64,000 bases of DNA from the IMG/VR virus record IMGVR_UViG_3300042874_000086, positions 25,673 to 89,672 of that record; one strand, given 5' to 3'. Numbering within the stretch: position 1 is the first letter of the stretch; every line of letters begins with the position of its first letter. The notes below the pieces were generated by a model that had not been told where the DNA came from, searched no databases, and saw only the letters and a program-made list of their open reading frames with translations. Origin of the DNA: a virus. The translations under genes were made by a program, and so were the position numbers. Positions 44,654 to 64,000 of the stretch are shown here, in pieces.

Positions 44654-44654
44654 A

Positions 44655-44873: not shown

Positions 44874-45601
44874 CCTTTTTTGTAAACTTCAGTGTACAAA
44901 CCTACAGAAGGTTTTATCAACACCGGGGTGTTTTTTAGGAAATAATCAATGTACTTTGTGTGCTCAAAGTAGTATGGGGTCATAACTGCTATGTAGTTTA
45001 TATCAGTAAACCTAGATAATTTCAACAAACGTTCGGTAGACTTCTCGGTTCCCCATAAGTCATGTATAAATAACTTTTTGGGAGTCTGTAGGAAGTCTAC
45101 AGTTCCCTCATACCCTTTAAAGTACTTACTAACTGCCTGCTCAAGATTTCTATTAAGGGTACCCCGTAGTTCTTTTATACCTTGTTTATTGAACTCCAGT
45201 ACCAACCTACTTGCGTTCTTAGGAATCTCTTGAACATACACTTTAGAAAGTTCCACATGGAACTCTTTGAAGTTAAAAGTTCTTGGTTCTGGTTTTAGTA
45301 AAAGTAAACCGCTAAATACAATAGCTTCTTGTTGTGAGCAATTACTTAGTAGCACATTAATCATTTCATACTCTTTCTCCCCAATGTTTACTTTAGATAA
45401 ATAATCATAATGATTTAAGAATATTGACACTTTACCCTTATATACTAGGGGGAGATTTTCTATTACCACATTTATTTTTGAATATGGGATACTAAATTTA
45501 GGTTCTTGTTGAATACTCAAAAGGGCTTTGCAGTCCTCTGAGCACCCATCAAAGTTCTTATTTAGTAGCCCATTGGTGAATTCAAGGGCTACATTCCTCA
45601 T
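44870..45601 (-). CDS. Hypothetical protein
   Basis: 243-aa ORF, ATGA-coupled to the ClpP-like gene. Confidence 0.55.
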   Translation of the reverse strand: MRNVALEFTNGLLNKNFDGCSEDCKALLSIQQEPKFSIPYSKINVVIENLPLVYKGKVSIFLNHYDYLSKVNIGEKEYEMINVLLSNCSQQEAIVFSGLLLLKPEPRTFNFKEFHVELSKVYVQEIPKNASRLVLEFNKQGIKELRGTLNRNLEQAVSKYFKGYEGTVDFLQTPKKLFIHDLWGTEKSTERLLKLSRFTDINYIAVMTPYYFEHTKYIDYFLKNTPVLIKPSVGLYTEVYKKG

Positions 45602-48583: not shown

Positions 48584-48585
48584 GG

Positions 48586-48951: not shown

Positions 48952-48953
48952 TT

Positions 48954-49774: not shown

Positions 49775-49777
49775 GAA

Positions 49778-50390
49778 TTCCGTGTGTGCAAGCAGGGACA
49801 CGGATAATTGAGCTTGTATTTTACTGTAGCTCCATTTATTACTAAACAGTACTTCCGAATTCTTTATGCCAAACTTTCAAGTATTAAGCTGTGCTCCCAT
49901 AAATTCAAGGAAGATTGATTAATGGTGATTAGCCAACCATAAGGGTTGTGGTTCGATTCCAAACTATCGACTTAATACTCTATCAACCTACCAATCGACT
50001 TCATAGGCTGAATAGGGGATTAAAAGCTCTTTGTGGTGTAGGCACGAATTTGGGCCGTGGGTTATATGTACAGCATATCTTCCACTCACTACACCATCAA
50101 AAGCTAGGTATGCACCACTACCCCTGCTTCCCTCGGGGCACCAAGTCCGACAACTTGATTAACTATTAAGGAATTAGCTTGATTCCTACGGGGCTACCCT
50201 AACGCACACCTTTGTATCGCTGAAGTGGAAGCGTAAGCACTATTTCGTCTGCCTAGAAACGTCTATGATTATCCTCTTAGACCAGAGTAGACTGCTTGTA
50301 GTGGGAGTCAACACTGTTGCTTGTCGAAGGCAACGTAAAAGTTCCATATAGAACCTTTGCAATACCTTCTGACACCTTTATAGGGTGTCA
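49778..50390 (-). ncRNA. Candidate large structured non-coding RNA(s) upstream of tRNA-Arg
   Basis: No sense ORF of 60 aa or more; richer in GC than its flanks; many hairpins; directly downstream of a sigma70 promoter. Confidence 0.55.
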
Positions 50391-50392
50391 AA

Positions 50393-50421
50393 ATTATACA
50401 CAATATTTTAAAGAAAGTCAA
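50393..50421 (-). promoter_or_regulatory. sigma70 promoter for the ncRNA/tRNA transcript
   Basis: TTGACT-N17-TATAAT. Confidence 0.8.
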
Positions 50422-50666
50422 GACTCTTTTAAATCTTTTAATACTTTTTTTAAGATAGTATTTGGTACATTCATAAAGATTAAACCCACATTAGTTTCCC
50501 TAAATATAGGTATTCCCCTGTAAGTAACATAACCACATTTCATATAACACCCGGCACTTCTAGTTGATAAAAAAGAGTTAACAACTGGGTATTTTTTCTT
50601 AAAAACATGGGATATACTTACCCGTAATAATAAGTATTCCATGTAATAGAGTATATACCTAATCAT
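50418..50666 (-). CDS. Hypothetical protein
   Basis: ATGA overlap with the stop of the SLT frame. Confidence 0.45.
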   Translation of the reverse strand: MIRYILYYMEYLLLRVSISHVFKKKYPVVNSFLSTRSAGCYMKCGYVTYRGIPIFRETNVGLIFMNVPNTILKKVLKDLKES

Positions 50667-51222
50667 AGTACACTCCGTGCAAACTTTTTACCTTCGGAAC
50701 AATAACCTTTATACCTATGTACAGCCTCAAACATTTCACCCTCAGATATTTTTAAATAGTGGTTTAATATATAAGCCATAGAGTAAATATTACCCTTGTC
50801 AGTGTGGGGGTTAAAGGGAAGAGCCTTAGAATCCCAAGCTCTAGTATTAATCCCACATAACCCAACTACGTAGGGGAGTGCGTGTTTTCTATGAATGAAA
50901 GAAGACTCGGAATTTGTAAGTTTTCCGAGTAATTCTACTTTCCCACATATTCACACTCCAATAAGCTGCTAGCCTTTATTAATTCTACAGCCTGTTCTTT
51001 TGTAGCACCAGCTTTTATTAAATCATACTCTTGTAGTTGGTAAGCTCTGTAACCCTCTCTATAAAACTCTAATTCACTTTTAATTTTAGATTGTTTATCG
51101 TTATAGGCTAAAATAGTCTCATTAATAATGACAACATTAAATACCAAATATAAACAAAATAAAGCCTCCGCCAAAATAATAATTAATAGAAACTTTGTCC
51201 AATGCTGTTCTAATTTATTCAT
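50663..51222 (-). CDS. Membrane-anchored lytic transglycosylase (SLT-like), read through a -1 frameshift at 50938-50944
   Basis: Frame 0 gives a TM + coiled-coil ORF (51222-50935). The -1 frame gives VELLGKLTNSESSF...GLCGIN...NPHTDKGNIYSMAYILNHY...AVHRYKG, ending at TGA 50663-50665. Confidence 0.7.
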
Positions 51223-51439
51223 AATTTACTCCTTACTTTTTTATTACGCTCGTTATACCCCAAGCCATTTTAAACTCCTTTGTTTACTTTTTGTTCCCAT
51301 TCACTACAACTATAATTTAAATCTATTAGTATAATTGGTGTTTGTGGGTGTTGATTTGTACAAACTTTATACTTTACATCACCCTTTTGATTATACCTTG
51401 TAAAACTGTATTTACAATTTTTACATGAAACTGGTTCCA

Positions 51440-52090
51440 TTAGGAGTCAAACCCAAATAGAATTTGAATATCATCATCCAATGACATACAATCCTCATAA
51501 AAACTCATGTACAACTCAAGGTTATGTATCTTTGTATAAAAAGGTTCATCTTCCCATTTTATTTTAATATAAACGTGGTTGTTTGGGTATTCCTTCTCAA
51601 TTTGTTTTACAGTTTTGCCAAAAACTTCTGAATCAGTTAGCTTTATTACTAAATCACCGTCAATAACCCCACACCAATCAAGGGTATTAAGAGGAACACC
51701 ATCAAGGTATTTTGAATATTCCTCCAAGGTAAAGTAGCCTACTCGCCTAACGATTTGTTGAGCAAGCTCAAAATTTAATCTTAACTCCGCCAAAGTTAGA
51801 TACCCGAAGTCGTGTAAACCCCCCCAAACACCATTAGGGAAATACACACTATCTTCAGTATAGTGGCTAAAGTCAAAATCTTTAGGGAGACCTCGTTCTT
51901 TCACAAATGAATTAATCCCACTAACTTTAGAGCTTGTATACCCATTACGGACACTTGCAAGTACCGTAAAGAAATCATAGTCTCTTTCTCGGAAATGTGG
52001 AGGTAACTCAAAGTATTCCCAAGCTTTTTCTTGGGTTGTATGGTTAACCGTAACTTTCTTCCTCATAACTATATTAATATCCGTTCCCAT
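51440..52090 (-). CDS. Conserved phage hypothetical protein
   Basis: MGTDI...RDYDFF.VLASVRN...RGLP.D...LFGFDS pattern. Confidence 0.65.
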   Translation of the reverse strand: MGTDINIVMRKKVTVNHTTQEKAWEYFELPPHFRERDYDFFTVLASVRNGYTSSKVSGINSFVKERGLPKDFDFSHYTEDSVYFPNGVWGGLHDFGYLTLAELRLNFELAQQIVRRVGYFTLEEYSKYLDGVPLNTLDWCGVIDGDLVIKLTDSEVFGKTVKQIEKEYPNNHVYIKIKWEDEPFYTKIHNLELYMSFYEDCMSLDDDIQILFGFDS

Positions 52091-52212
52091 CTTTTACCCT
52101 TTATGGTGTTTTGCTAATAACTTTATAAGAACTTTAATAAGTTCCAACTTACCTCACGTACTTTTTGTTTCAATTATACCAATCAACTCTTAGATGATAT
52201 TCATCTTAGTTC

Positions 52213-52419
52213 CTAACAATATAAATCAGGAAAGTAACAAAAATCATCTGTGATATGACAGAACGGGCACTGGATATTCTCTAAGTCATCCTCCTTAGTA
52301 TCAACCATTATTATGTGACCACAGTTACCACAAGTACAAATATCTATACCTGTTTGGTCTAGTATTTTATGAAACCTATCAGCTTGTTTTAAAACAAGCT
52401 CTCCAATAACTTCTTTCAT
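52213..52419 (-). CDS. Small Zn-ribbon protein
   Basis: TCGNCG...CPFC; AAGGAG RBS. Confidence 0.6.
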   Translation of the reverse strand: MKEVIGELVLKQADRFHKILDQTGIDICTCGNCGHIIMVDTKEDDLENIQCPFCHITDDFCYFPDLYC

Positions 52420-52439
52420 GTTTACTCCTTTAGAGCCTA

Positions 52440-52468
52440 ATTATAACACAAATCTTAAAAATTGTCAA
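52440..52468 (-). promoter_or_regulatory. sigma70 promoter
   Basis: TTGACA-N17-TATAAT. Confidence 0.85.
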
Positions 52469-52503
52469 AGCCCTATTTTAGGGGGTTTGATTGATGGCGT
52501 GAG

Positions 52504-52555
52504 GCTTGTCCCAAGACCTATCACTTGTTTACTCCTTTGAGGAACCTTAACTTAC
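52504..52555 (-). repeat. Dispersed element copy 2 (inverted relative to copy 1)
   Basis: 52/52 match to the reverse complement of 28339-28390. Confidence 0.9.
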
Positions 52556-52610
52556 CTAATAGGTTTTAATATATCTATAATAAGAGATACTATAAAGTAA
52601 GTATATATTT

Positions 52611-52913
52611 TCAACCACTTGTTCCTGTGTAGTAGTCAAACTCTGCACCCTCTGAATTGTAGTTACGAGTACAGGGGTCACCAACTCTATCACACCATTC
52701 TTGTTTTTCATCAATCCTTTGGTAAATACACCCTACACAACTATTTAGAGACTCCAAACATTTTAAGCGACTCCTGAAAAGTTCCACCGAAACTATGTTA
52801 AGTGTTTCATTTTCTTTTTTAAGGTGTTCAATATAACCTCTAACAGCCTTTAATTCCTTCTTAACTTGTCTAAGCTCTTTTTTGGTATTATGTAATTCCT
52901 GTGCCAAGCGCAT
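52611..52913 (-). CDS. Hypothetical coiled-coil/Cys protein
   Basis: ORF with SCVGCIY motif. Confidence 0.5.
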   Translation of the reverse strand: MRLAQELHNTKKELRQVKKELKAVRGYIEHLKKENETLNIVSVELFRSRLKCLESLNSCVGCIYQRIDEKQEWCDRVGDPCTRNYNSEGAEFDYYTGTSG

Positions 52914-52929
52914 AGCACCTTCATTAACT

Positions 52930-53328
52930 TTAATCGTTAAAGTACCCTATATTATTCTTAATACCTAGTACCGAGCCTCTACGTTCCAATAGGTACATTT
53001 TATTATCTTTCAACAAAACGTAAGTAGCCTCTTTGATGGGGGTTCCAAGTTTTGTTAAACGAAACTGTTGGTGCGTATAAGGATTATAAGTAATTTCATC
53101 AATTATTTTGAAATCACCCTTATGATATGGTACGTAACCAGCACACCCAACCTTAGCGTGTACGTTTTTTCTTTTGGTGTCCAGTACAACTTGTCTACGT
53201 TTTTCAGAAACTTTGAAGGTTGCTCTGAAACATACTGAACAAGTTGGGTGGTCTACAACTTTGTTTTTGTGTTGAACACTGAACGTTCCAGTATGTAAAT
53301 TTCTATAAAAATAAAACTTTGCTCTCAT
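52930..53328 (-). CDS. Conserved phage hypothetical protein
   Basis: YRNLH...FSV...FKVSE..RQ.V...RKNVHA...TYNPY. Confidence 0.65.
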   Translation of the reverse strand: MRAKFYFYRNLHTGTFSVQHKNKVVDHPTCSVCFRATFKVSEKRRQVVLDTKRKNVHAKVGCAGYVPYHKGDFKIIDEITYNPYTHQQFRLTKLGTPIKEATYVLLKDNKMYLLERRGSVLGIKNNIGYFND

Positions 53329-53432
53329 CTTAACTCCTTTATATTTCGTATATACCCCTCAGCGTCATTTCTAGGTACCTAGAAGCAACGATTACGTAGA
53401 CCGTAGTGTGTTGATATTACTTTGGGTATAAA

Positions 53433-53651
53433 TTATGTTCTAGGGCTTGTATTTAAGTCTTCTAGACTTTCTTGTTTTCCATCTAAGTAAACAGAAACTG
53501 TGCCCGCTATTAAAATTTCAAGCTCTCTATAAATTGGGTCATCCGAATTTCCCCATACAAGGTACGGATGTCCAACTACAAATACTCCCATATAAGTACC
53601 ATTATCAAACCTAGCGGCTACGTATAAGCCAGTCTCTTTGTTTGCAATCAT
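53433..53651 (-). CDS. Hypothetical protein
   Basis: AAGGG RBS. Confidence 0.45.
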   Translation of the reverse strand: MIANKETGLYVAARFDNGTYMGVFVVGHPYLVWGNSDDPIYRELEILIAGTVSVYLDGKQESLEDLNTSPRT

Positions 53652-53660
53652 TTTGACCCT

Positions 53661-53987
53661 TTAACCATTTACACGAAGCGCTGAACACCCCACGGTTTTT
53701 CCAAACTCATTTTTAATAGCTTTAAAGGTAGCTACAACATCTTTACGGTGAGGCAGTTTCTCTCTGACGTAATTGAGAACTGGTGCTGACACAATAAGCA
53801 TAACACCCTCTTCTGCTTTAGGGAGACCCGCAATATCTGTAAATTCAATTTCATAGATTGGTACGCCATCAACTATGCCTATTAAGTTTTGCTGTTGTGT
53901 AACTTTTACTGGACTATTTGCATGTGGGATTGTTACCCCAAGTGGTAATAAGTCTACCGAGTGTGCCGTTAAGTTTATAAATTTCAA
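53661..53987 (-). CDS. Conserved phage hypothetical protein
   Basis: INLTAH...GLP...IVS...R.DV...G..VGC motif. Confidence 0.6.
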   Translation of the reverse strand: MKFINLTAHSVDLLPLGVTIPHANSPVKVTQQQNLIGIVDGVPIYEIEFTDIAGLPKAEEGVMLIVSAPVLNYVREKLPHRKDVVATFKAIKNEFGKTVGCSALRVNG

Positions 53988-54262
53988 TTTTTATCCTTTT
54001 GTTTTACGAGGTGCCAATGGTGGTCTTTTCCACTTATAACACGATTAACTATATCTTCTTGGGTATACCCAAGGAACCTTAGGAAATTAGTCATTCTCTC
54101 ATTTTCATAAGTTAAATCTTCTATTCCCTCTAAATTTTCCAACACCTCAAGTTTCAAATCTTTTGTAGATTTTTCGAGGTAGTCAATATATCTATTCATT
54201 TCGTTGATTTCCCCCGACAATCCCTTACCTATACTATTATCAAGTATGTCAGACCTTTTCAT
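53984..54262 (-). CDS. Hypothetical protein
   Basis: AAGGGG RBS. Confidence 0.5.
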   Translation of the reverse strand: MKRSDILDNSIGKGLSGEINEMNRYIDYLEKSTKDLKLEVLENLEGIEDLTYENERMTNFLRFLGYTQEDIVNRVISGKDHHWHLVKQKDKN

Positions 54263-54272
54263 ATTAACCCCT

Positions 54273-54533
54273 TTAATTTATTTTAATATCTGGACATTCT
54301 TTACGAATGTTCTTTAAAGTGTAAATGGCATATAAGTCCTCCTCTTTTGATATGGGGCACCCAAATTTTTGTTTATCTGCCAATTTTGATAGGGACATTA
54401 TAGCATTTTCACAACTTAATGTGTTGTCTACATAAACTAAATCAACATAAAATTCAAACTGCCAATCAAGTATTTTGCAGTTATTTTGGTTTGCCAACAG
54501 TAAAACTGGAAGTAGTAATAAAAGTACTTTCAT
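54273..54533 (-). CDS. Small secreted Cys-containing protein
   Basis: Signal peptide MKVLLLLLPVLLLA and four Cys. Confidence 0.55.
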   Translation of the reverse strand: MKVLLLLLPVLLLANQNNCKILDWQFEFYVDLVYVDNTLSCENAIMSLSKLADKQKFGCPISKEEDLYAIYTLKNIRKECPDIKIN

Positions 54534-54955
54534 TCGTTATCCTTCGGTTCATAATAATCAATAGCAATGCGTTTACAATTTATACAAGTATGTGAATTTG
54601 CTATTAATTCTGAATATTTACCCCCATTACAACTCTTTGATTCATCTGTGTATTTATCAACATATTTGCTATGTGTAAAATCTTTAGATAATTCTTTATT
54701 ATCAGATTCTAATTCTTTGATACGACCTAATAATTCATTAACTTGTATAGCATAAACATCTCTTAAATTGTCCCAACAATCATTACTACACATTTCAACT
54801 TCAACGCCTTCTACCCATTCATGCAATACATCAGCATACGGGTGACGATTAGTTCCTTTAGGGATACATACATTTGATTCAAAGAATTTATCTAAAAATC
54901 CTTTTATTTCATATTCTGAATCATAAAATTCGTTGTATAAACCCTCTTTAGTCAT
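54530..54955 (-). CDS. Hypothetical protein
   Basis: AAGGA RBS; RHPYADVLHEW.EG motif. Confidence 0.5.
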   Translation of the reverse strand: MTKEGLYNEFYDSEYEIKGFLDKFFESNVCIPKGTNRHPYADVLHEWVEGVEVEMCSNDCWDNLRDVYAIQVNELLGRIKELESDNKELSKDFTHSKYVDKYTDESKSCNGGKYSELIANSHTCINCKRIAIDYYEPKDNE

Positions 54956-54966
54956 AGTTTATCCTT

Positions 54967-55101
54967 TTATTTTATGTATATTCCATGTTTTGATAGTAAG
55001 TTTTTTGTTAATAAAAACACCTGTAATAAGTCATGTGGTTCCATGTCTTTAATCTGCTCAAGTATTAGTTCAAGCACTAGTCCGGACTGTTCTATATTCA
55101 T
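54967..55101 (-). CDS. Small hypothetical protein (44 aa; not in the ORF track)
   Basis: AAGGGGTTTAAG-ATG RBS shared with other early genes; palindrome upstream. Confidence 0.5.
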   Translation of the reverse strand: MNIEQSGLVLELILEQIKDMEPHDLLQVFLLTKNLLSKHGIYIK

Positions 55102-55152
55102 CTTAAACCCCTTTAGTATTTTTAAAAAGTTCCATGTGGAACTTTTAAGTTG

Positions 55153-56091
55153 TTAAGCGTACTGCCAAGTACACCCACCTGCTTTTGTACGGATACCTTT
55201 ACAAACCTTTGTAATGTTTGTGGCAAAGATACCAGTTTTTGTTTCAGCTTCTGCGGCGGAGGCATAAACTACTTTTACATTTTTACCCTTCTCATTGGTA
55301 ACCAACATAACTGCTTTACCCTCTTTAGGGATTTCAACTTTTGATTGTTTATAAACTTTAATATCACGAAGTACATCAAAGTTACTTGCTTTATCAGTGA
55401 CATCCTCAATTATTTCATAATCACATACCCGCATTTTAGTATCATTGTAGTCAGCCGGAATTGATACAACATCTCGTGGGTTTACCTTACAAGCCATGAT
55501 ACGATTCCCTGAACATGACCCGAAGTGTTTTAGGTATGAATAACTGCAAACATGAAGCCCATCAGAACAAGTTACTTGGGAGTTCTCATTAACCATATTA
55601 CGAGGCATACTTGGTTTCGCACCTACTGAATTATCAATAGTACCTGTGTAAATATCTTTGTAGTTTGGGCGTACTTTTTTATAAACCACAAAATGCCCGT
55701 CTTCTGTAATGGGGATTCCACCTTTTTCCAAAAACTGGTAGAGTTCCTTAACAGCTCTGTACGAAGGGTTCTCCATCAGATTGCTCAAGAAATTTATAAG
55801 AGGGTTAATATTAAACCCAGATTCCATTAAATCAAATAACTTGTCTACCACATAGTTATGTAGCTCCTTGCCTTTGTAGAGCACAACACCATCCTTGACC
55901 TCAACAGTACCATTAGAATATACTTCAATAGCTTTAGAAATATTGATGAGATTTAGAAGTTCTTCTTCGTCTGCCCCACGTTTGATTGCTTCAAGCACCT
56001 GTGTGTAATTTACATGTGTTGTATCAACAACTTTTGGAATTCCATCCAAAAGCACCGTAATTGAATTTTGTGAGATAATATAGTGTACCAT
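55153..56091 (-). CDS. rIIB-like protein with C-terminal NUMOD1-like HTH
   Basis: FLSNLMENPS...ELYQFL...PITEDGHFVVYKKV...TCSDGLHV...KVNPRDVVSIPADY..KMRVC; tail ITKVCKGIRTKAGGCTW. Confidence 0.85.
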   Translation of the reverse strand: MVHYIISQNSITVLLDGIPKVVDTTHVNYTQVLEAIKRGADEEELLNLINISKAIEVYSNGTVEVKDGVVLYKGKELHNYVVDKLFDLMESGFNINPLINFLSNLMENPSYRAVKELYQFLEKGGIPITEDGHFVVYKKVRPNYKDIYTGTIDNSVGAKPSMPRNMVNENSQVTCSDGLHVCSYSYLKHFGSCSGNRIMACKVNPRDVVSIPADYNDTKMRVCDYEIIEDVTDKASNFDVLRDIKVYKQSKVEIPKEGKAVMLVTNEKGKNVKVVYASAAEAETKTGIFATNITKVCKGIRTKAGGCTWQYA

Positions 56092-56092
56092 C

Positions 56093-58276
56093 TTAGACTC
56101 CTTGTTTTGTTTTAGTATTATAACAAGAATCAATCATTTTGGCAATTGATTCCACCTGAGATTTATGGGTAGAATTAACACAACTAAGCATATCGTACTT
56201 CTTCATAACCTCCTCAATTTTAGGGTCTTTAAATTCTTTCTTAACCACCTTTAAAAATGGAAGATTTTTTTCGATATTACCTTGGTCTAGGTATGGGGTT
56301 CTTGTGAGTTGCTCACCAGATTCCAACAAACTTTTCACAGCATTAATGTAGTCCTTCGGTAAGTTCATATTTACCAAATCAACCAATCTTGAGCGGTATT
56401 CATGTTGATACTTTTTAAGTAAAGCGTCCCCCACCATGGTTACAGTGCCGATTTCCCGTTTTAGAAAATCTTCATAATGTTCTCCAAACTTTGTAAAGGA
56501 TTTCTGTGTCTTACTGACAATAATAATAATCAAATCTTTATCATACTTTACTTGGTCAAGTACGGTTTTAATTGTGTTTAAAATTCTTGATGTTGAAAAT
56601 TGTTCATAACCATCAAAGTTTCGGTTAGCCAAATTATAGTCACCAGTACCATATTTAGGGATGTAAATTATTTTAGTTTTTGTATCCCCATTGACTTGTA
56701 TATTATCATTGAGGGTAAAAACACCAGCCGTACTATTTGATTTATCTACAGCAAGTACAGTTTTAACTGTGTTTAAAATTCTCGATGTTGAAAATTGTTT
56801 ATAACCACCACAGTTTTGGTATTTAGTTTTTGTATCCCCGTTGACTTGTATATTATCATTGAGGGTAAAAACACCCGTTTTATGGTAATAAGTAGCCCCA
56901 GTGATAGGTGTATATACCCCAGTTGTCCCATTTGATTTATCTATCGCAAGTCCATGCTTTTTTGCTAAGGTACTAGCAAGTTCAATAGTTACCCCACAAT
57001 TTTCGGCAAACTCTTGTATAAACTTAATTTGTTCCTCTTTTTCTATCTTATTTTTACCAGCAATCTCGGGCTGGATAGCCACAATCTTACCTAAATCTCG
57101 TTCTTTGTATAATCCAAGAACTTTATTGGTTAGTTGTTGGTTATCTGCAAAAATAATTATACCAGATAATAAACTTGTAGCGGCGTATGTATCTTTTCGG
57201 AGTCCTCTCCTCCAACTTGTATACTTTAATTGGTATCCATCAAGACCAATTTTAGGGTATGACCCTTGGTACTTAATACCTATCGGGTGGTTCCCACTGT
57301 TTGAAAAAATTGAACGAACACTATATGGCATTTTACCGATTGTATTAACAATTTGTATCAAGTTACCTTTTATATTTTTAGTCATTTCTAGGTACTGGGC
57401 AGTTAACTCCTTAGTAATTTCAGTTTCGAACTTTTTAAGGTTGGTTAAAGTTTCTTTGGTATATGAAAGTCCTTCTCGGCTACCTGACATTTGAACCTCA
57501 CCAGTTTCTGCCGAAACTACTAATCCTTGTATTTCAAGATTAGGTAAGGAATACGTAGAACAATCAATAGGGTATGCAACATTTGCCATAACTACAACAG
57601 GATTAGTCGATTCTTCAAAAATCTTCCAATTCTTGCCTTGGAAGATTGGTTTTGTAAAATCAGGGTACTCCAAATCTTGGTTACACTTAGGTTTTACTCT
57701 AAAGTGGCTATAAACGTTTACTGCTGAACGGTAAAAGTCATTAATATCTTGAACTTGAATAGGCACTGAAACTTCAACACCATTTGGTTCGTCTGTTTTA
57801 AACTCACCCAACTTTGCAATAGAAGGAACACCCGCGTCACTGAATACTGAATAGATTGACTTAGTACCGTATTGGAATGAAGTCAAAGTAAACGCACCAC
57901 CTTGAGTATATGCAAAAGGAGACTTTGAACCTACCCCTAAAGCTCCATTAAAGGCATTTGAGCCACGTTTGGAAGAACTCCCCATAGTTGAGTAAAGCTC
58001 GAATACAGTTTCCTCACTCATACCCACTCCAAAATCTCGAATTGAAAAGAAAGGTTCTAACCTAGTTGGTAAGTGTACCTCGAATGGGATATGTTCCATT
58101 CTAGCTTCAATTTGAGCATCCAAAGCATTTGTTGAAAGTTCCCGAACAACTGCCAATGGTTTGTTAGAATATAAACGGCTTGATAGTAAGTCAAACATTA
58201 CACTATTGGCTTCAATCTTACAAGCAACACTTCCTACATTACTTTCAGCTCTTACAACTGTATTTTCAATAATCAT
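56093..58276 (-). CDS. rIIA-like protein (GHKL ATPase N-terminus)
   Basis: LYSNKPLAVVRELSTNALDA, IRDFGVGMS, SSKR..N...G.LGVGSKSPFAYT; adjacent to rIIB. Confidence 0.88.
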   Translation of the reverse strand: MIIENTVVRAESNVGSVACKIEANSVMFDLLSSRLYSNKPLAVVRELSTNALDAQIEARMEHIPFEVHLPTRLEPFFSIRDFGVGMSEETVFELYSTMGSSSKRGSNAFNGALGVGSKSPFAYTQGGAFTLTSFQYGTKSIYSVFSDAGVPSIAKLGEFKTDEPNGVEVSVPIQVQDINDFYRSAVNVYSHFRVKPKCNQDLEYPDFTKPIFQGKNWKIFEESTNPVVVMANVAYPIDCSTYSLPNLEIQGLVVSAETGEVQMSGSREGLSYTKETLTNLKKFETEITKELTAQYLEMTKNIKGNLIQIVNTIGKMPYSVRSIFSNSGNHPIGIKYQGSYPKIGLDGYQLKYTSWRRGLRKDTYAATSLLSGIIIFADNQQLTNKVLGLYKERDLGKIVAIQPEIAGKNKIEKEEQIKFIQEFAENCGVTIELASTLAKKHGLAIDKSNGTTGVYTPITGATYYHKTGVFTLNDNIQVNGDTKTKYQNCGGYKQFSTSRILNTVKTVLAVDKSNSTAGVFTLNDNIQVNGDTKTKIIYIPKYGTGDYNLANRNFDGYEQFSTSRILNTIKTVLDQVKYDKDLIIIIVSKTQKSFTKFGEHYEDFLKREIGTVTMVGDALLKKYQHEYRSRLVDLVNMNLPKDYINAVKSLLESGEQLTRTPYLDQGNIEKNLPFLKVVKKEFKDPKIEEVMKKYDMLSCVNSTHKSQVESIAKMIDSCYNTKTKQGV

Positions 58277-58346
58277 CTTAGACACCTTTATGGTTATATA
58301 TTAAAAGTTCTATATGGAACTTTATAGTTTAAGTTTAAATTCCTTT

Positions 58347-58377
58347 AAGGAGTAAACAAGTGATAGGTCTTGGGACA
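58347..58377 (+). repeat. Dispersed element copy 3 (31-bp core)
   Basis: AAGGAGTAAACAAGTGATAGGTCTTGGGACA is identical to copies 1 and 2; downstream CAATCAAACCCC..AAAATAGGG is shared with copy 2. Confidence 0.88.
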
Positions 58378-58433
58378 GACATAATGTCGCCAATCAAACC
58401 CCACAAAATAGGGGGTTCAAATTTTCAGTTCGT

Positions 58434-58802
58434 TTAAGGTTCAGCGATGATATTTCCATCTTCGTCTACTAAACCTGCTTCTTCCAGACGTTTCCACAAT
58501 TCATTTGAGATGGGTTCTGAAGCTATCAAAAACAATTCATTCATAGTTTCATCATCCATACCTTTAAGTACCCATTCCATAAGTCTGGAAATCTTCTTAA
58601 ACTTATTACTTTTTTCAAAGAACTCCGAGGTATTCATCATTGACATAGCCACCATTACTGTGGCAATCTTTTCGTCCCATGTAAACTCAACTGAACCTTT
58701 TTCAAGGATACGTTTGACCCTATCAACAATTACTACATTTGCTTTAAAATCTTCAGGAACTCCTAAGGATTTTGTAATATTTTTTGTACCATGATTAAAC
58801 AT
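58434..58802 (-). CDS. Hypothetical protein
   Basis: ORF in the early operon. Confidence 0.5.
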   Translation of the reverse strand: MFNHGTKNITKSLGVPEDFKANVVIVDRVKRILEKGSVEFTWDEKIATVMVAMSMMNTSEFFEKSNKFKKISRLMEWVLKGMDDETMNELFLIASEPISNELWKRLEEAGLVDEDGNIIAEP

Positions 58803-59049
58803 AGACTTTACCCTTCATGTGAATTTCAAGTACAGTATCTTTATTTACTGCACGGTAGTCGTGTTTTTTAACATCGTAGATTGTGATAAATTTATCACGA
58901 CTAAGGGTAGATTCCCCACCTCGTAATTTTGAGGTTACGCCTAAGCGACCATTAAGATTTCTAATAGTTCCATCTTTTTTAACAAAACGGATTGTAAGGA
59001 TTTTATCTCCAGCCTCTTCCATCAGTCTTTCAAGTGTAGCTTTATTCAT
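58795..59049 (-). CDS. Conserved phage protein (SH3/WYL-like, DUF2693-like)
   Basis: FVKKDGTIR.LNGRLGV...IYDV....YRAVN. Confidence 0.6.
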   Translation of the reverse strand: MNKATLERLMEEAGDKILTIRFVKKDGTIRNLNGRLGVTSKLRGGESTLSRDKFITIYDVKKHDYRAVNKDTVLEIHMKGKVYV

Positions 59050-59131
59050 TTTATCCCCTTTAGGTTTTTAAAAAGTTCCATGTGGAACTATATGGTTGGT
59101 ATAAGAACAACTAATATTTATGAACAGTGAC

Positions 59132-59160
59132 ATTATAACATAATATTATATAAATGTCAA
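59132..59160 (-). promoter_or_regulatory. sigma70 promoter
   Basis: TTGACA-N17-TATAAT. Confidence 0.85.
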
Positions 59161-59169
59161 GAGTATTAT

Positions 59170-59397
59170 TCAAAATTTTGATAATACAGATAAATTAAAG
59201 TCCAACTTTTGTAGATTAGTGCCATTATATTCCCTATTCCACACACATTTTTTGGTTCTACGACAGTAAATCAGGTACATTGGTGAGTCAAAATGACTTT
59301 TATACACCCTATACTCCCAATTTTCATAAACTTTAGATAATTGAGGGGTAATAAAACTCTGTTTATTTCCGTCCTCTTTTAGTAGAAATGTTTTCAT
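59170..59397 (-). CDS. Hypothetical protein
   Basis: AAGGGA RBS; palindrome upstream. Confidence 0.5.
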   Translation of the reverse strand: MKTFLLKEDGNKQSFITPQLSKVYENWEYRVYKSHFDSPMYLIYCRRTKKCVWNREYNGTNLQKLDFNLSVLSKF

Positions 59398-59456
59398 TAT
59401 ATCCCTTTAGGTTTTAAAAAGTTCAATATGGAACTCCCACAAGTGGGTATGGAACT

Positions 59457-60029
59457 TTAATGTTTTTCAAAAAAGATTGGAGTACCTTCGTTGCATTTCT
59501 GCATACACCAAGTACACCCCTCACCGCAATACCGTTCACCTTTATCCTCAAGTGTATCTGGGCAAACGAACCCCCCACAACTTTTAGCAACTTCGGAGAT
59601 ACCCTTACCAAAATTTATAATACCACTACCTAAACTGTTGTGAACTACACAATTGGGTAGTGCCATAATTTTAGAGAAATCAAAATCTTGCATACGTTTT
59701 GTGTAAGTGTAAAAAATAATTTCAGGGTGTTTTCGTGCAATTTTTTCCCACTTGTCAATATACTTTTGGGAATAAAATTCACCTGAAGCATGAATACGAA
59801 CGTACTTAAATTTGTTATGAATAACAATATGGGAATCAAAGTTTTCAGCTTGGCTAGCCTCATACATCCGATTATTATAATCAGCTACCACAGGGCGTAA
59901 CTTCTGCATTTTCATAGCATAACATCCTTTACACTCTCTACCACATACTTCCATACCTGCGGTGATTGACCAAACACCTATGTGTTTTGCCAACTTTTTA
60001 TTACCGTCTTTCAGTTTTATTACTAACAT
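59457..60029 (-). CDS. GP88-like phage protein (Cys-rich, radical-SAM-like)
   Basis: GNKKL...C...C..CYA...VRIHASGEFYS...FYTYTK...CP...C...C..C. Confidence 0.7.
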   Translation of the reverse strand: MLVIKLKDGNKKLAKHIGVWSITAGMEVCGRECKGCYAMKMQKLRPVVADYNNRMYEASQAENFDSHIVIHNKFKYVRIHASGEFYSQKYIDKWEKIARKHPEIIFYTYTKRMQDFDFSKIMALPNCVVHNSLGSGIINFGKGISEVAKSCGGFVCPDTLEDKGERYCGEGCTWCMQKCNEGTPIFFEKH

Positions 60030-60072
60030 TTCATTTTACCACCTTTATATTTTTAGTTCCACATGGAACTTT

Positions 60073-60393
60073 TTAGCAACACGAACCTTTACGGAACGAA
60101 TCCAAATAAACCTTGCTACCTTTTTCTTTACGTATAGACTCATATAAGTCGTTGGCATACCTCCTACGGTCTGTTTCAATATCTACTTGTTTCGATAGGG
60201 ATATACAATTTTCTTGTAGTGTTAAACAATACCTTCGGAGTTTATTCAAATCTCCCATTTTAATTGTTATTTCACTCTCTGGTACATTAACCTTGTAAGC
60301 GTCTTCAATAGCTTGAAGGATACTTGGAATTTCCTCAAATTTCATTATAGCCCCCTTGAATTTCAGTATGTGACCATACGTAGACCTCTGCAA
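60073..60393 (-). CDS. Hypothetical coiled-coil protein (likely ATG start near 60345)
   Basis: AAGGGGG RBS before MKFEEIP. Confidence 0.5.
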   Translation of the reverse strand: MQRSTYGHILKFKGAIMKFEEIPSILQAIEDAYKVNVPESEITIKMGDLNKLRRYCLTLQENCISLSKQVDIETDRRRYANDLYESIRKEKGSKVYLDSFRKGSCC

Positions 60394-60511
60394 AATTTGT
60401 ATTACAGGTTAAACATTCCAAACATTCAGTGATAGTACTAGCACCGTAAATAGTATCAGTGACATGTACGTTACTTGAGCCACAGTTAGGGCAAGTATTA
60501 ATTTCATTCAT
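60335..60511 (-). CDS. Small Zn-ribbon protein (58 aa; not in the ORF track)
   Basis: Hand translation: MNEINTCPNCGS...CLECLTCN; GGAGG RBS. Confidence 0.6.
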   Translation of the reverse strand: MNEINTCPNCGSSNVHVTDTIYGASTITECLECLTCNTNFAEVYVWSHTEIQGGYNEI

Positions 60512-60853
60512 TTAGTCCTCCAAAGTTCTATTATATTTTATATCAAACGATTCATCATATTCCGCCTCTGCCTCTTCAAGCAACAAGCCCCCCTCGATGA
60601 ATTGCTCACCTTCCCAAACTTCGAAACGAGCTTCCAAATACTTGTAGTCGGCGGTATCTAAAGTTACCTCACAATCCTCTTCAGGGGTGAATAAAGAAAC
60701 CTCATTAGGTAAATACCCACTGTCCTCAATCAAATCTTGAAGGAGTGGAATAACCCACTCATCATCAGATTTTTCCCACTCGTATTCCCAAACAGAAATT
60801 CCTCTGTTCCCATCAATGTCCGCACCGTAATTTTTATCATTGTACCAAATCAT
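60512..60853 (-). CDS. Acidic hypothetical protein
   Basis: YGADIDGNRG motif; AAGGGG RBS. Confidence 0.55.
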   Translation of the reverse strand: MIWYNDKNYGADIDGNRGISVWEYEWEKSDDEWVIPLLQDLIEDSGYLPNEVSLFTPEEDCEVTLDTADYKYLEARFEVWEGEQFIEGGLLLEEAEAEYDESFDIKYNRTLED

Positions 60854-60896
60854 TTTAAACCCCTTTAGAATTTTTTAAGTTACTGGCTACTTGTTT

Positions 60897-61409
60897 TTAT
60901 AAGTAGTCCTTTCCTATAATACGTCTTAATTCAGTTTCTTGTTCTGACCATGCAGATGACCATGCAGATGACCATGCCGCTGACCGTGCCGCTGAATCTG
61001 CAGCTGAATCTGCCGCTGACCATGCAGATGACCATGCCGCTGACCGTGCCGCTGACCGTGCCGCTGAATCTGCAGCTGACCGTGCCGCTGACCGTGCAGC
61101 TAATCTAATATCATCATTTCCTGTTTCAAGCCAATCGATAATTAAGTCATAATTTTCTTCGGAGCAATATGGTTTAATCTTATCAATATTCTGCATTGCA
61201 CAAAATCTGGCAAACGCACCTATCTCTTCATTGTGCCCTTCTATAGCCCTAAAACACCAAATTGCGTCTTCGATTCCATTGCTATTTAAAATGGTTAAAA
61301 GTGATAGTTCTTCATCGTCTGCCTTAGTTTTTCCAAGTGTTTTTAAAAGCTTTTCCCATCCGTCTCTGCAGGGAGAATGCTCTCTTATTTTATTTAGTGT
61401 TGTTTTCAT
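60897..61409 (-). CDS. Phage protein with Ala-rich tetrapeptide repeats
   Basis: TTLNKIREHSPC.DGWEKLL..LGK N-terminus; 12-bp repeats (SAAR/SAAD/SSAW) at about 60945-61100. Confidence 0.7.
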   Translation of the reverse strand: MKTTLNKIREHSPCRDGWEKLLKTLGKTKADDEELSLLTILNSNGIEDAIWCFRAIEGHNEEIGAFARFCAMQNIDKIKPYCSEENYDLIIDWLETGNDDIRLAARSAARSAADSAARSAARSAAWSSAWSAADSAADSAARSAAWSSAWSSAWSEQETELRRIIGKDYL

Positions 61410-61440
61410 AAGTAGTCCTTTCCACGTACGTCAAAATCAA

Positions 61441-61671
61441 TTACCCCCGAACTTGAATAACACGTTTAATAATATGCTGCAACCTTGAAGTAATACTGGA
61501 GTATTTTTCAAGGTTAAACCATTGTTCTGTGTTATTCTCACGAAACATTTGAGTATTGTATGAATACACAATATAAGTATCCCCATGCCATACAGCATAC
61601 GCAGAATTTCCTGTGAACACCTGACGATTTTTTATAAGGTCTGGAATTTGTTTATAATTAACCTGTGCCAT
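61441..61671 (-). CDS. Conserved phage hypothetical protein
   Basis: YIVYSYNT...KYSSITSRLQ. Confidence 0.6.
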   Translation of the reverse strand: MAQVNYKQIPDLIKNRQVFTGNSAYAVWHGDTYIVYSYNTQMFRENNTEQWFNLEKYSSITSRLQHIIKRVIQVRG

Positions 61672-61805
61672 TTTAAACCCCTTTATTTAATAGTTCCATG
61701 TGGAACTTTTTCTATTATTAGAGGGAGTTGAATTTTTCCCTTTAACACCCTAATTATACCCTATTCAAATAACATTATAACCCCCTTAGGAATTTTGAGA
61801 ATCCA

Positions 61806-62072
61806 TTAAAGAGGGGTCTCGAATTTTAAGGTTTCTATAAGAGATTCAAACGGAATTTCAGCGAACCCATAAAACTCATCTTCAACATAATTTGCAATAA
61901 AAGACGTGCAACATAAATCAACCTTAAAGTATTCTTGTAAATCCTTTAAAGACCAACAACAAATCCCCCAAGAATTGTCTGAATCACCCACTGGACGAGG
62001 CGAAAACTTAGCAGTATACTGTATAGCGTCCACCGCAACACTTTCCACAATTTGATAATACATGTGAACCAC
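61806..62072 (-). CDS. Hypothetical protein
   Basis: AAGGGG RBS; palindrome upstream. Confidence 0.45.
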   Translation of the reverse strand: MVHMYYQIVESVAVDAIQYTAKFSPRPVGDSDNSWGICCWSLKDLQEYFKVDLCCTSFIANYVEDEFYGFAEIPFESLIETLKFETPL

Positions 62073-62313
62073 CCCTTTATCACTTTAAAAAGTTCCACAT
62101 AGAACTTTTATTACTCTCTAAATCCCCCCAAAAATTCCTTTTAGGTGGGTACTATAGTACCTTTTAAGGCACCTTTAAACCCTACATGATTTATTTTCCA
62201 CTCTCAAAGGTAACTTCAAAGTACTTTCGTATACCGAGGTTACCTTGAAGTTCCCTTGAAGGACTGTGAACCTCACCATAAAAATTTTTTTATACGGTTT
62301 TCCGTATGTTTTG

Positions 62314-62442
62314 TCAGAACCCTAAGTGGTCGTTTAAGGTTTTTTTAAGGTTACCTTCAAATTTGTTTAAGGTTACTAAAATTACCTTTAAAGTTACCAT
62401 TAAGGTTACTCCAATTATTATCCAAGTTGCTACAAACTCCAT
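62314..62442 (-). CDS. Small membrane peptide (42 aa; not in the ORF track)
   Basis: Hand translation: MEFVATWIIIGVTLMVTLKVILVTLNKFEG...; AAGGGGTTTAAA-ATG RBS. Confidence 0.5.
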   Translation of the reverse strand: MEFVATWIIIGVTLMVTLKVILVTLNKFEGNLKKTLNDHLGF

Positions 62443-62483
62443 TTTAAACCCCTTTATGTTACCTTAAAAGTTCCATGTGGAAC

Positions 62484-62720
62484 TTATTTGCTTACCGTGA
62501 TAGACTTCAACTCTGCCTTTAGGGTACGTGCAAGTTCCCCTCGGTACCCACTAGCATTACTTAAAAAGCGCAATACGACACTATAAGTCCCATCAAGACC
62601 GTAGTCGTCCCTCTCCATCGCTTTAAGGTAAGGTTCAGCATACACTGATACCTTTTTCCAATCCTTTCTAATTGCTCGAGCGATACGTGCAAAGGCTATT
62701 CTTTCTGATATTTCGTTCAT
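62484..62720 (-). CDS. Conserved phage hypothetical protein
   Basis: IARAIRKDW...AEPYL.AM...YG.D...VVLRFLSNA..YRGE.AR..KAELK. Confidence 0.65.
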   Translation of the reverse strand: MNEISERIAFARIARAIRKDWKKVSVYAEPYLKAMERDDYGLDGTYSVVLRFLSNASGYRGELARTLKAELKSITVSK

Positions 62721-62856
62721 CTTAACCCCATTATCGTTTTGTTATATTTGTCTTGCAAATTTAGAAAGTTCCACATGGAACTCTCAAGGAACCTTCTAAA
62801 TTTTCAGAAGGCACTATAAATCTTTTGTAACCGTATTATTTATATTTGCATAGCAA

Positions 62857-62885
62857 ATTATAACATAACCTTAAGGAAATGTCAA
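62857..62885 (-). promoter_or_regulatory. sigma70 promoter
   Basis: TTGACA-N17-TATAAT. Confidence 0.85.
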
Positions 62886-63088
62886 GGTAACTTATGAGTG
62901 ACTAAAACTTTCTAAATTTTGTAGAACTTCCTAAAAATTACTAGAAAGCGGATAATGTATAACACATGGTATACATTATGTTCCTACAATAGTTCTATAT
63001 GGAACTTTTTTATTCCGTTATAGACGACTAGGAAAACAGAAACGGTTTCTGTGATTAACCGTTATTAACCATCTAGGTATGGTGGGCG

Positions 63089-63706
63089 TTACCCCACCAA
63101 ATCAAAAAATGAATTTTCGTATGCTAGAATGTGTGCTTCGATTTTGTCTCGCATAACATCGGTTAATGTCCCTTTGGTTTCCATCTCTCTTAGTGTCTCT
63201 CTCATTAGTGCGACGCTCTCATCAAATAATGTGAGAGTGGGATACTTTGCCGTACTGACAACGGCGTTACGTTGTACGTTCAATACTTCGCGAACGTCCT
63301 CTACGGTATCCGCTTTAACGTCCTCTACGGTATCCTCTACGGTATCCGCTTTAACGTCCTCTACGATACCCGCTACGGTATCCGCTTTAACTGGTGACTT
63401 AATCCCTCTTAGATAGTCATACAATTTAACAAAGCCGATTGTATTACAATAGCTAATGTCTATTTTATCGGCATAAGTGCGTAATATATTAATTGACGCA
63501 AACATTTTCTTAATATAACCTTCACTCCACACGTCAGCTAACTGAAGTTTAATTTCTTTTAACTCTTCAGTACCGAGCACGGTATCACCGGCTACTGTTA
63601 ACGCCCACTTAGACCCGCTCATTTCTGTTTTAGAAATCGCTACTGCAATTTTTTTTGCTTCTGCTACCGCTTTAATAACGTGTTGCGCCGTTGTTGTTGT
63701 TTTCAT
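63089..63706 (-). CDS. Early protein with VKADTVED repeats and a possible HTH
   Basis: First gene after the rightmost promoter; short tandem repeats at about 63295-63390. Confidence 0.6.
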   Translation of the reverse strand: MKTTTTAQHVIKAVAEAKKIAVAISKTEMSGSKWALTVAGDTVLGTEELKEIKLQLADVWSEGYIKKMFASINILRTYADKIDISYCNTIGFVKLYDYLRGIKSPVKADTVAGIVEDVKADTVEDTVEDVKADTVEDVREVLNVQRNAVVSTAKYPTLTLFDESVALMRETLREMETKGTLTDVMRDKIEAHILAYENSFFDLVG

Positions 63707-63748
63707 CTTTAACCCCTTTATGTTGTTGTTGCTTTTAATTCGAGTGTC

Positions 63749-63777
63749 ATTATAGTACGATAAAAAAATAATGTCAA
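63749..63777 (-). promoter_or_regulatory. sigma70 promoter
   Basis: TTGACA-N17-TATAAT. Confidence 0.85.
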
Positions 63778-64000
63778 GGGCATAACCTCCTTTTATAAAA
63801 AGTTCTATATGGAACCCCCTCTATCTTCAATAGTAAAAATAAATACTAACTAACAACTTAAAAGATACTTAAATGTAATATAAACGTGACCTTAAGGTGA
63901 CATCAGTGCTACCTGTGGTTACACTTAAGGTGTGTTTAAGGTTACTTTTATGCTAAAAGGGGGGAGGTTAAAGTTCCTTTAAGGTTACCAGTCGGCGCAC

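Follow-up and report, generated by a model that had tools for sequence, protein, structure and literature searches.

The 64,000-nucleotide (nt) stretch of viral DNA analysed here (the window) comprises bases 25673-89672 of the 89,672-base IMG/VR record IMGVR_UViG_3300042874_000086, and positions given below refer to the window unless stated otherwise. The block of early genes at its right end is interspersed with copies of a 16-bp palindrome. We regard these palindromes as lineage-specific cis-regulatory punctuation of the early gene block, read by a factor which the phage lineage specifies and not by the ParB protein of the host. The explanation that we tentatively place first is that they form an array of operators or roadblocks for a putative phage-encoded, symmetric DNA-binding protein, in the manner of the stoperators of cluster A phages.

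A search of the window at ≤3 mismatches returned 14 sites (28 strand-matches; Table 1), the expectation from 100 dinucleotide shuffles being 0.60 strand-matches; the largest shuffle gave 5, and none of the 100 reached 28. The rest of the genome outside the window contains no additional copy at ≤3 mismatches. The consensus is AGTTCCAYRTGGAACT; AAA and TTT flanks are usual and extend the site to 22 bp. Of the 14 copies, twelve are found within 13.5 kb of early genes. These are the ones listed in the original prediction, in which every coordinate and sequence proved correct and whose number is far beyond chance. Its statement that there were none in the first 50 kb was wrong, since a perfect copy (45249) and a copy with three mismatches (12482) are present there, both inside genes. 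The description of all copies as intergenic applies to the twelve listed sites, which are non-coding save for a one-base overlap of 62469 with the stop of gene 62484-62720, and does not extend to the two intragenic ones. Similarly, the reported rise in density towards the right end must be read with the caveat that the six right-most sites lie in a 3,047-base duplicate of the start of the record. The half-site AGTTCCA occurs 35 times where 11 are expected; 22 of the 35 are inside palindromes, which account for the excess, and an enrichment of lone half-sites was accordingly rejected.

The genes at 50-64 kb are on the minus strand, and it is on this strand that the palindromes stand, as had been claimed, just upstream of early-gene ribosome-binding sites (RBSs). 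In eight of the twelve the distance from the end of the palindrome to the next start codon is 20-29 nt, and the Shine-Dalgarno (SD) sequence falls in this gap; in a ninth the distance is 46 nt. Non-coding placements ending 13-37 nt before a start constitute 14.7% of those possible at 50-64 kb, compared with 8 of 12 sites (binomial P=6e-5). A typical minus-strand copy consists of AAA-AGTTCCAYRTGGAACT-TTTT(A), 5-15 nt, TAAAGGGG, about 7 nt and ATG. Ten such cassettes can be aligned, giving a consensus of about 50 nt, AAAAAGTTCCAYRTGGAACTTTTTAAAAA-N3-TAAAGGGGTTTAAAATG. Five copies are located in tight intercistronic junctions without room for a promoter (62469, 60055, 59420, 55128 and possibly 58306), and five or six lie +31 to +76 nt past a promoter-like site, three of these promoters being perfect (12/12) matches to the sigma70 consensus. 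Those which do not precede a gene are 62991, 50340 and 63801.

Several conventional signals were considered and set aside. A promoter between palindrome and ATG was rejected, as there is no room for one in 20-29 nt, and so was a reading of GGAAC as an extracytoplasmic function (ECF)-type -35 element, the -10 of which would land on the SD. Intrinsic termination fails as a general explanation: a consensus scan flagged none of the twelve copies on the minus strand and two on the plus strand, the cores are weak (-2.1 to -6.3 kcal/mol), and about half of the copies in L209, one of the related phages introduced below, are followed by A-runs with no T-run. RNase III sites were dismissed, stems of 6-10 bp being too short for that enzyme.

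As the exact 16-mer occurs no more than once in any stretch listed, relatives of the phage were reached via rIIA. In IMG/VR the 16-mer occurs in 37 stretches with one match each, and a search of 185,579 species genomes likewise gave single matches only, among the matches listed (at least 120 stretches). Arrays of this type are present in five related uncultured phages whose rIIA is 39-50% identical. G001 (82 kb) has 10 copies of AGTTAKAnnnTMTAACT, all in its first 10 kb; G002 (83 kb) has 4 copies of AGTTACA-(2 or 4 nt)-TGTAACT; L209, a contig of 11 kb, has 15 copies of AGTTCCRTAYGGAACT, including tandem copies 42 and 51 bp apart; L211 has 5 copies of AGTCAYA-nnn-TRTGACT; and L212 has a single copy of AGTCACAgccTGTGACT. 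No copy was found in 21.6 kb of L042, a more distant relative.

The location of the palindromes recurs from phage to phage. One is found 24-34 nt before the start of rIIA in the window, G001, L211 and L212; one follows rIIB in the window, G001 (9939) and L209 (10465); and one precedes the -35 of the first early promoter by 8-24 nt in the window, L209 (460), G001 (61) and G002 (83101). Between the conserved genes (A, B, E, G, rIIA, rIIB and L) the small ORFans differ among four of the phages, and the palindromes at the boundaries keep their places. G002 has in addition a perfect copy (3537) within rIIA. The original prediction had asked whether the motif is conserved in related phages; the answer is that the positions of the array are kept and that the inner arms differ.

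The manner in which the arms differ is informative. Within a genome they are nearly invariant. Between phages, a change at positions 4-6 of one arm is matched in the other (TCC/GGA, TAG/CTA, TAC/GTA, CAT/ATG and CAC/GTG) and AGT...A/T...ACT remains fixed, so that the arm variants across the six phages are AGTTCCA, AGTTAGA, AGTTACA, AGTCATA and AGTCACA, in sites of 16, 17 or 18 bp. Three phages (G001, L211 and L212) have a 17-bp geometry, represented by AGTTAGAnnnTCTAACT, AGTCATAnnnTATGACT and AGTCACAgccTGTGACT, which is not parS-like, and in G002 the spacing is mixed, with two 16-bp and two 18-bp sites. The arms in the window and in L209 are identical despite only some 44-60% identity between the proteins of the flanking genes. 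Over the 49 sites of the six phages, arm positions 2-5 are complementary in all 49, though positions 4 and 5 have changed between lineages. The remaining positions are looser, the numbers of Watson-Crick pairs, G.U pairs and mismatches being 37, 2 and 10 at position 6, 43, 2 and 4 at position 7, and 42, 4 and 3 at position 1. Co-evolving sets of repressors and operators in cluster A phages show a genome-specific "code" of this type (PMC6550527), which supports the operator reading.

These comparisons also bear on the main proposal of the original prediction, namely that the sites are a mimic of the bacterial centromere parS which recruits host ParB, and with it SMC, to the entering DNA or the early DNA, the purpose being positioning, silencing or titration. 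The resemblance on which it was built is genuine as far as it goes. Both elements are 16-bp palindromes with a GTT..CA..TG..AAC skeleton and clustered copies; our consensus agrees with the quoted parS consensus, TGTTNCACGTGAAACA, at 12 of 16 positions, and the G002 copy at 1267 (AGTTACACGTGTAACT) agrees at 13 of 16. The four differences from the quoted consensus are at positions 1, 9 or 8, 12 and 16. To our knowledge parS hardly varies among bacteria. In G001, L211 and L212, however, the same positions are occupied by sites with non-parS inner arms and the 17-bp geometry, and the sites are tied to gene starts, something a centromere does not need. No ParA or ParB gene had been seen in the window, and this holds for the three full phage genomes, none of which matched ParB_N (PF02195) or the ParA-like AAA_31 (PF13614) in searches with positive controls. 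Furthermore, no bacterial genome has several copies of the motif among the matches listed (at least 120 stretches). Because of the variable arms, the 17-bp geometry, the tie to gene starts and the lack of ParB and ParA, parS mimicry is not supported and we give it almost no credence.

The other suggestion of the original prediction, an operator array for a phage-encoded repressor of early genes, survives as our leading reading; it is unproven, and a role at the level of RNA is a serious rival. Three things are inferred here: a protein reader, recognition of DNA and not RNA, and repression by roadblock as the outcome. In the mechanism that we envisage, a two-fold symmetric (dimeric) phage-encoded protein would bind the 16-mer as a duplex. 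At the 5' edge of an early cistron, with a stop codon or promoter behind it and an SD ahead, the bound protein would block RNA polymerase, and this roadblock would turn off or insulate early genes as expression passes from early to middle. The palindrome immediately ahead of the first early promoter would serve as an ordinary operator.

Concerted complementary changes in the arms are predicted by DNA and RNA readings alike, and therefore other features were used to discriminate between them. What is maintained in the arms is their sequence and not their capacity to pair. The arm variants had been described as non-compensatory, fitting double-stranded DNA better than an RNA stem. This is borne out both by the window, where six of the 14 sites are non-Watson-Crick at arm position 6, and by the larger set of 49 sites, where the single-transition mismatches on the sense strand comprise 8 G.U and 10 A.C, with 7 further mismatches that pair on neither strand. 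If G.U were favoured 4:1, the probability of 8 or fewer G.U among 18 would be 9e-4. The asymmetric centre (ACAT or ATGT) has no orientation preference relative to transcription (4 and 4), and neither has the variant half-site, which lies on the 5' side in 5 sites and on the 3' side in 8. The predicted RNA core amounts to -6.3 kcal/mol at best and to between -2.1 and -3.9 kcal/mol in 6 of the 14 sites of the window; in three of the ten G001 sites it is only -0.3 kcal/mol, and these still lie 22-26 nt before an ATG or have the sequence kept. Several well-placed copies have values of -0.3 to -2.7 kcal/mol. Values of z < -3 were obtained in only 3 of 12 folded contexts. Complementarity beyond the core is not above that of shuffled partners (56 compared with 64.8), and extended stems, as suggested by L211 and L212, were rejected.

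The rival at the RNA level takes the palindrome to be a short stem-loop in early transcripts, 9-22 nt upstream of the SD, acting on translation or stability. It might be bound or cut by a phage RNA-binding protein or endoribonuclease akin to RegA or RegB of T4, with coordinated translational shut-off or processing as the result, or it might act alone as a stabiliser of 5' or 3' ends, an insulator or a weak attenuator. We consider this rather unlikely, and yet a number of observations tell for it, and some of them at the same time weigh against the operator reading. The palindrome tracks the SD and start codon and not the promoters, which fits a role in RNA or translation better. In the five long intergenic gaps it lies +38 to +76 from the predicted transcription start and 20-46 nt from the ATG, adjoining the SD rather than the promoter, and across the six phages 34 of the 49 sites have a start 13-37 nt downstream by a simple regular expression for SD plus start, two of the positives in the window (62991 and 63801) preceding no open reading frame (ORF) of at least 40 amino acids. 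The arm spacing, which differs between lineages and even within G002, is awkward for a rigid dimer, and a centre that varies from 2 to 4 nt is what one sees in hairpin loops. Departures from Watson-Crick pairing are confined to the loop-adjacent positions (6 and 7) and the terminal pair (1). The palindrome at 50340 caps a long predicted RNA hairpin, the first 81 nt of the leader 49778-50390 folding at -29.2 kcal/mol (z = -5.24) with the palindrome at the tip. In L209, finally, an everted hairpin at 7426-7450, GTGGAACTCC-AATAA-GGAGTTCCAC, has a 10-bp stem formed by the same arm sequences in swapped order, with the same stem duplex, and lies 31 nt before the start of rIIA, the place of the normal palindrome in other phages. 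The small, conserved, Sm-like early protein discussed below can be counted on the same side.

Two further points against the operator reading concern its protein. No DNA-binding protein was found, there being no helix-turn-helix (HTH) or ribbon-helix-helix (RHH) regulator among some 40 early-region proteins searched against Pfam, PHROGs and NCBIfam; and a repressor of the lysogeny type would not be expected, because the phages look virulent.

On the other side, an RNA stem ought to have shown a preference for G.U over A.C and an orientation bias of loop or variant arm, and neither is seen; as RNA, many copies have marginal stability or none; and it would be unusual for an RNA-binding protein to need a strictly conserved stem sequence and leave the loop free. 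A T-run is missing after the stem in roughly half of the copies in L209, and none of the copies was flagged as a minus-strand terminator. Perfect copies occur inside ORFs (45249 and G002 3537), where an RBS-linked role in RNA makes no sense, and in four genomes the outermost copy is upstream of the first promoter. The tandem copies of L209 likewise speak for a DNA site. On balance we somewhat favour a symmetric DNA-binding reader over a role in RNA.

A third explanation dispenses with a dedicated reader. The array looks most like the PeSL elements of T4-type phages, as far as sequence can tell, with a different order of parts. In common with PeSLs it has repeated genome-specific cassettes of A-run, stem, loop, stem and T-run, near-consensus sigma70 promoters, SDs, and a location in ORFan-rich hyperplastic early regions. 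The palindromes could by analogy be linkers between cassettes, each a module of about 50 nt made up of palindrome and RBS (attenuator plus translation start), and kept uniform through gain, loss and swap of early ORFan cassettes by recombination there, as in T4-type phages. The shared consensus of about 50 nt given above and the hyperplastic early region agree with this, as does the turnover of ORFans between block boundaries at which the palindromes stay, an observation of gene-level synteny in relatives too diverged for breakpoints to be recognized. In the PeSL papers the stem-loops are likewise genome-specific and of the form A3-4-stem-loop-stem-T3-4, the order is given as stem-loop, AT-rich region, promoter and SD, and the authors also ask whether a DNA-binding protein reads the stem (PMC2839356, PMC4122927). 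Here, by contrast, only the outermost copy, in each of four genomes, precedes a promoter, and the others are mostly arranged as promoter (5-6 copies) or stop (5 copies), then palindrome, then SD. Moreover, exchange driven by homology would have little to work with, strict conservation being limited to 16-22 bp, and the identity of arms between the window and L209 beside much less similar proteins argues for constraint and not for recent copying. PeSLs also belong to T4-like myoviruses, whereas this phage appears to be a T5-like siphovirus. We think linkers of this kind improbable.

Very unlikely, in our estimation, is that the palindrome is the site of a host transcription factor, or a hairpin promoter for a phage RNA polymerase of the N4 type, with transcription starting just downstream and a short leader carrying the SD. 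The early promoters of N4 have a stem of 5-7 bp and a loop of 3-4 nt. The palindromes have the same dimensions and are genome-specific, and the geometry is suitable in that a leader of 15-25 nt would follow. Against this, the T7/N4-type RNA polymerase domain (PF00940) was not found in three genomes, in a search without a positive control. The largest ORF specifies the tape-measure protein, consensus sigma70 promoters already serve the genes, and the phage encodes but one small sigma factor. A host factor would leave the lineage-specific arms unexplained unless the hosts differed in step.

In search of the reader protein about 40 early-region proteins, most of them ORFans, were scanned. The only correlate with arm type, and a weak one, is a basic helical protein of 78 amino acids (62484-62720), which is present only in the two phages sharing AGTTCCA arms, that of the window and L209. 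Its gene is preceded by a 12/12 promoter and palindrome(s) in the former and by tandem palindromes in the latter. It belongs to a large and widespread family (827 representative proteins at E<=1e-3) with the conserved motif W..Y..FLSNA..G..A..K.L, which often forms the C-terminal domain of longer proteins, and neither PDB nor Pfam gave a clue to this protein. The first early protein (205 amino acids, 63089-63706) had no homologs in a word search, and its Atlas model was poor. Among other candidates, a conserved protein of 108 amino acids was rejected as beta-rich and not regulator-like. A protein of 92 amino acids (53984-54262) was rejected because its short HTH-like motif, noticed by eye, does not track the palindrome motif. 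The GP88-family protein, of the L5 gp88 family, was rejected as a C1 repressor, as its NCBIfam match is far below the cut-off (22 compared with 500 bits). The C-terminal tail of rIIB was excluded since it shows no change that tracks the motif. This tail (55153-55270), of about 37 amino acids, resembles the NUMOD1 DNA-binding motif of homing endonucleases; its motif, EAE.KTG.FATNI.K.C.G.R..AGG..W.Y, is conserved in four phages and in PHROGs matches an HNH-endonuclease family. The small Sm-like (WYL_2) early protein mentioned above is conserved in G000, G001 and G002 and has a BLAST homolog in L209.

Among well studied systems the array would work most like the stoperator and operator arrays of cluster A phages, such as that read by gp71 of L5. 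Both consist of many dispersed copies of a short site, mostly in short intergenic spaces and some intragenic, with a lineage-specific motif. Among related cluster A phages the stoperator motif changes along with the lineage (PMC6550527, PMC9283540). By analogy the proposed action is also the same, that is, the blocking of elongating RNA polymerase. Stoperators, however, are asymmetric sites for a monomeric repressor, are oriented with transcription and serve lysogenic immunity, whereas the sites described here are palindromic and lack an orientation bias. The array differs as well in its confinement to about 13.5 kb of early genes, in standing directly before SDs, and in a genome in which no integrase or gp71-like repressor was found. 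With palindromic, unoriented sites, no gp71-like repressor found and a phage that looks virulent, the array is, by its sequence features, probably not a member of the stoperator family.

The conserved inverted repeats (CIRs) of phiC31 and the C1 operators of P1 are conserved intergenic operator copies across early genes, each set read by one repressor. Both are immunity systems of temperate phages; the phiC31 CIRs are found at promoters and terminators, and the P1 operators are asymmetric. Our palindromes resemble them as highly conserved intergenic copies across early genes and differ in that the phage has no homologous repressor. RegA and RegB of T4, and N with boxB of lambda, are examples of a single phage factor that acts on many early mRNAs through a short tag, placed close to the RBS or within the leader, and the boxB stems vary between lambdoid lineages. 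Those tags are single-stranded or loop-specific hairpins and directional, in contrast to the present element, in which the loop is free and the site symmetric. Stoperators are reportedly treated by Brown et al. 1997, the phiC31 CIRs by Ingham et al. 1994 and Wilson et al. 1995, 6/8-bp spacers in CRP sites by Barber et al. 1993, and SP82 by Panganiban and Whiteley 1983.

Table 1. Palindromes, early promoters and one further conserved element of the window.
Feature	Position	Strand	Context
Palindrome, sense GGTTCCATATAGAACT	63801..63816		Outermost copy; 23 nt upstream of -35 of first consensus early promoter
Sigma70-type promoter TTGACA-17-TATAAT, 12/12	63749..63777	minus	Upstream of first early gene 63089-63706; consensus match only
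Palindrome	62991..63006		82 nt past stop of gene 63089-63706; not beside a start codon
Consensus promoter, 12/12, TG extension	62857..62885	minus	Upstream of palindrome 62767 and gene 62484-62720
Palindrome, perfect	62767..62782		46 nt before ATG of 78-amino acid gene 62484-62720; extra GGTTCC half-site just upstream
Palindrome, perfect	62469..62484		1-nt overlap with preceding stop; 26 nt before ATG of 42-amino acid ORF 62314-62442
Palindrome, arm position 6 = T.G (sense)	62091..62106		27 nt before ATG at 62063
Palindrome, perfect	61692..61707		20 nt before ATG of gene 61441-61671
Palindrome, perfect	60055..60070		2 nt after preceding stop; 25 nt before ATG of 190-amino acid GP88-family gene 59457-60029
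Palindrome, arm position 6 = C.T	59420..59435		22 nt before ATG of gene 59170-59397
Consensus promoter, 12/12, TG extension	59132..59160	minus	Upstream of palindrome 59074
Palindrome, perfect	59074..59089		24 nt before ATG of 84-amino acid WYL_2 (Sm-like fold) gene 58795-59049
GTCC(C/T)AAGACCTAT element	58360-58381; also L043 ~6725-6745, L060 ~1900-1920	minus (window)	
Palindrome, arm position 6 = C.A	58306..58321		29 nt before ATG of rIIA (56093-58276)
Palindrome, perfect	55128..55143		9 nt after rIIB stop; 26 nt before next ATG (55101)
Near-consensus promoter	50393-50421		Upstream of leader 49778-50390 and tRNA-Arg(CCT) 49698-49774
Palindrome, G.U at arm positions 1 and 6 (sense)	50340..50355		Non-coding leader, tip of longer predicted hairpin
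Palindrome, perfect	45249..45264		Inside 243-amino acid minus-strand ORF 44870-45601; in frame, encodes EFHVEL
Palindrome, degenerate 3-mismatch copy AGTTCCATATAGAACC	12482..12497		Inside plus-strand ORF 12141-12875

The ORF which contains the copy at 45249 is continuous and has full-length homologs in G001 and G002, with EFHVEL falling in a poorly conserved stretch; the degenerate copy at 12482 may be without function. A search of Rfam over 44000-64000 gave the tRNA as sole match, and none for the leader 49778-50390. The conserved element upstream of rIIA listed in Table 1 is found 40-90 nt before that gene in three phages, independent of the palindrome, and might serve as a promoter of the middle class or as a further binding site.

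The closing 3,047 bases of the record (window 60954-64000) duplicate its opening 3,047 bases with a single mismatch, giving a unique genome length of 86,625 bp. IMG/VR classes the record as "linear" despite the duplicated ends. Since the boundary falls inside gene 60897-61409, the duplication looks more like an overlap left by the assembly of a circular or concatemeric form than like the true terminal repeat. Judged by its genes the phage is an uncultured T5-like siphovirus. The tape-measure protein, of 2,105 amino acids, is the largest ORF and no other giant ORF is present; a family A DNA polymerase, helicase, ribonucleotide reductase and ligase are also encoded, together with rIIA (56093-58285) and rIIB (55153-56133). 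The nearest cultured relatives of the large terminase are from T5-like phages, at 26% identity. Megablast against 50,697 phage records found no near DNA match, and no cultured close relative is evident, protein matches being ≤35% identical. A tyrosine integrase was not found in this genome, G001 or G002 (controls positive), and it is for this reason that the phages look virulent. The strong RBSs (AAAGGGG or AAAGGTG) and consensus promoters with a TG extension suggest a low-G+C host which uses SD sequences. The samples that contain the phage come from caves, soil or biofilms. The single sigma factor, of 189 amino acids (Sigma70_r2), is encoded at 33908-34477 in the replication/middle region, where a ClpP-like protease (45598-46158; Pfam CLP_protease, 3.8e-12) is found as well.

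Two early genes, 59457-60029 and 52930-53328, belong to families named for right-arm early genes of mycobacteriophage L5 (Pfam GP88 and Phage_L5_gp82), and tblastn with these proteins gave matches mainly to cluster A mycobacteriophages, including L5 gene 88. The early protein of 170 amino acids specified by 60897-61409 contains a tract of tandem repeats of the type (A/W)(A/S)RSAA (…RSAARSAADSAARSAARSAAWSSAWSAADSAADSAARSAAW…) and matches PHROG 18326. Upstream of the first early promoter, just past the right end of the window, lie some 650 bp of non-coding DNA (L077 record 2864-3512) with about 15-20 shuffled direct repeats (GTAACTTTAAAGATTCCC, CTAACGGTAACTTTTAAGATTCCC etc.) and a T15 run. The core of the repeat unit, GTAACTTT, is the arm of the G002 palindrome, and L209 has at 1-230 an analogous repeat array with its own units containing GGAACC. 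This stretch recalls the repeat-rich injection-stop region of T5; the accessible part of the source describes a non-coding repeat region and not dispersed palindromes (10.1101/866236).

The shut-off of early, host-takeover genes by virulent phages is poorly known outside the model systems. Here one short symmetric signal marks most of the early transcription and translation units, and among six related uncultured phages its sequence changes in concert and its positions are conserved. The analysis also removes the attractive but unsupported idea of parS mimicry, and it adds a T5-like siphovirus lineage to those phages in which a genome-specific palindrome punctuates the early ORFan cassettes. 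The array offers a clean system in which to look for a new early-gene regulator and to follow the co-evolution of site and reader. A more far-reaching possibility, which we think a good deal less likely than the general operator reading, is that this T5-like clade possesses a programmable palindromic tag, in which AGT/ACT on the outside and A/T on the inside stay constant and a 3-bp "specificity code" (positions 4-6) has been switched at least four times, and that a fast-evolving phage protein reads the tag and controls the early regulon before each RBS. Were this true, and were it the hairpin form that is read, whether by a Cas6- or RegB-like endoribonuclease or by a symmetric translational repressor, it would represent a new post-transcriptional punctuation of operons. 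If true, the tags and their readers would be natural orthogonal pairs, and the family could yield several that are mutually orthogonal.

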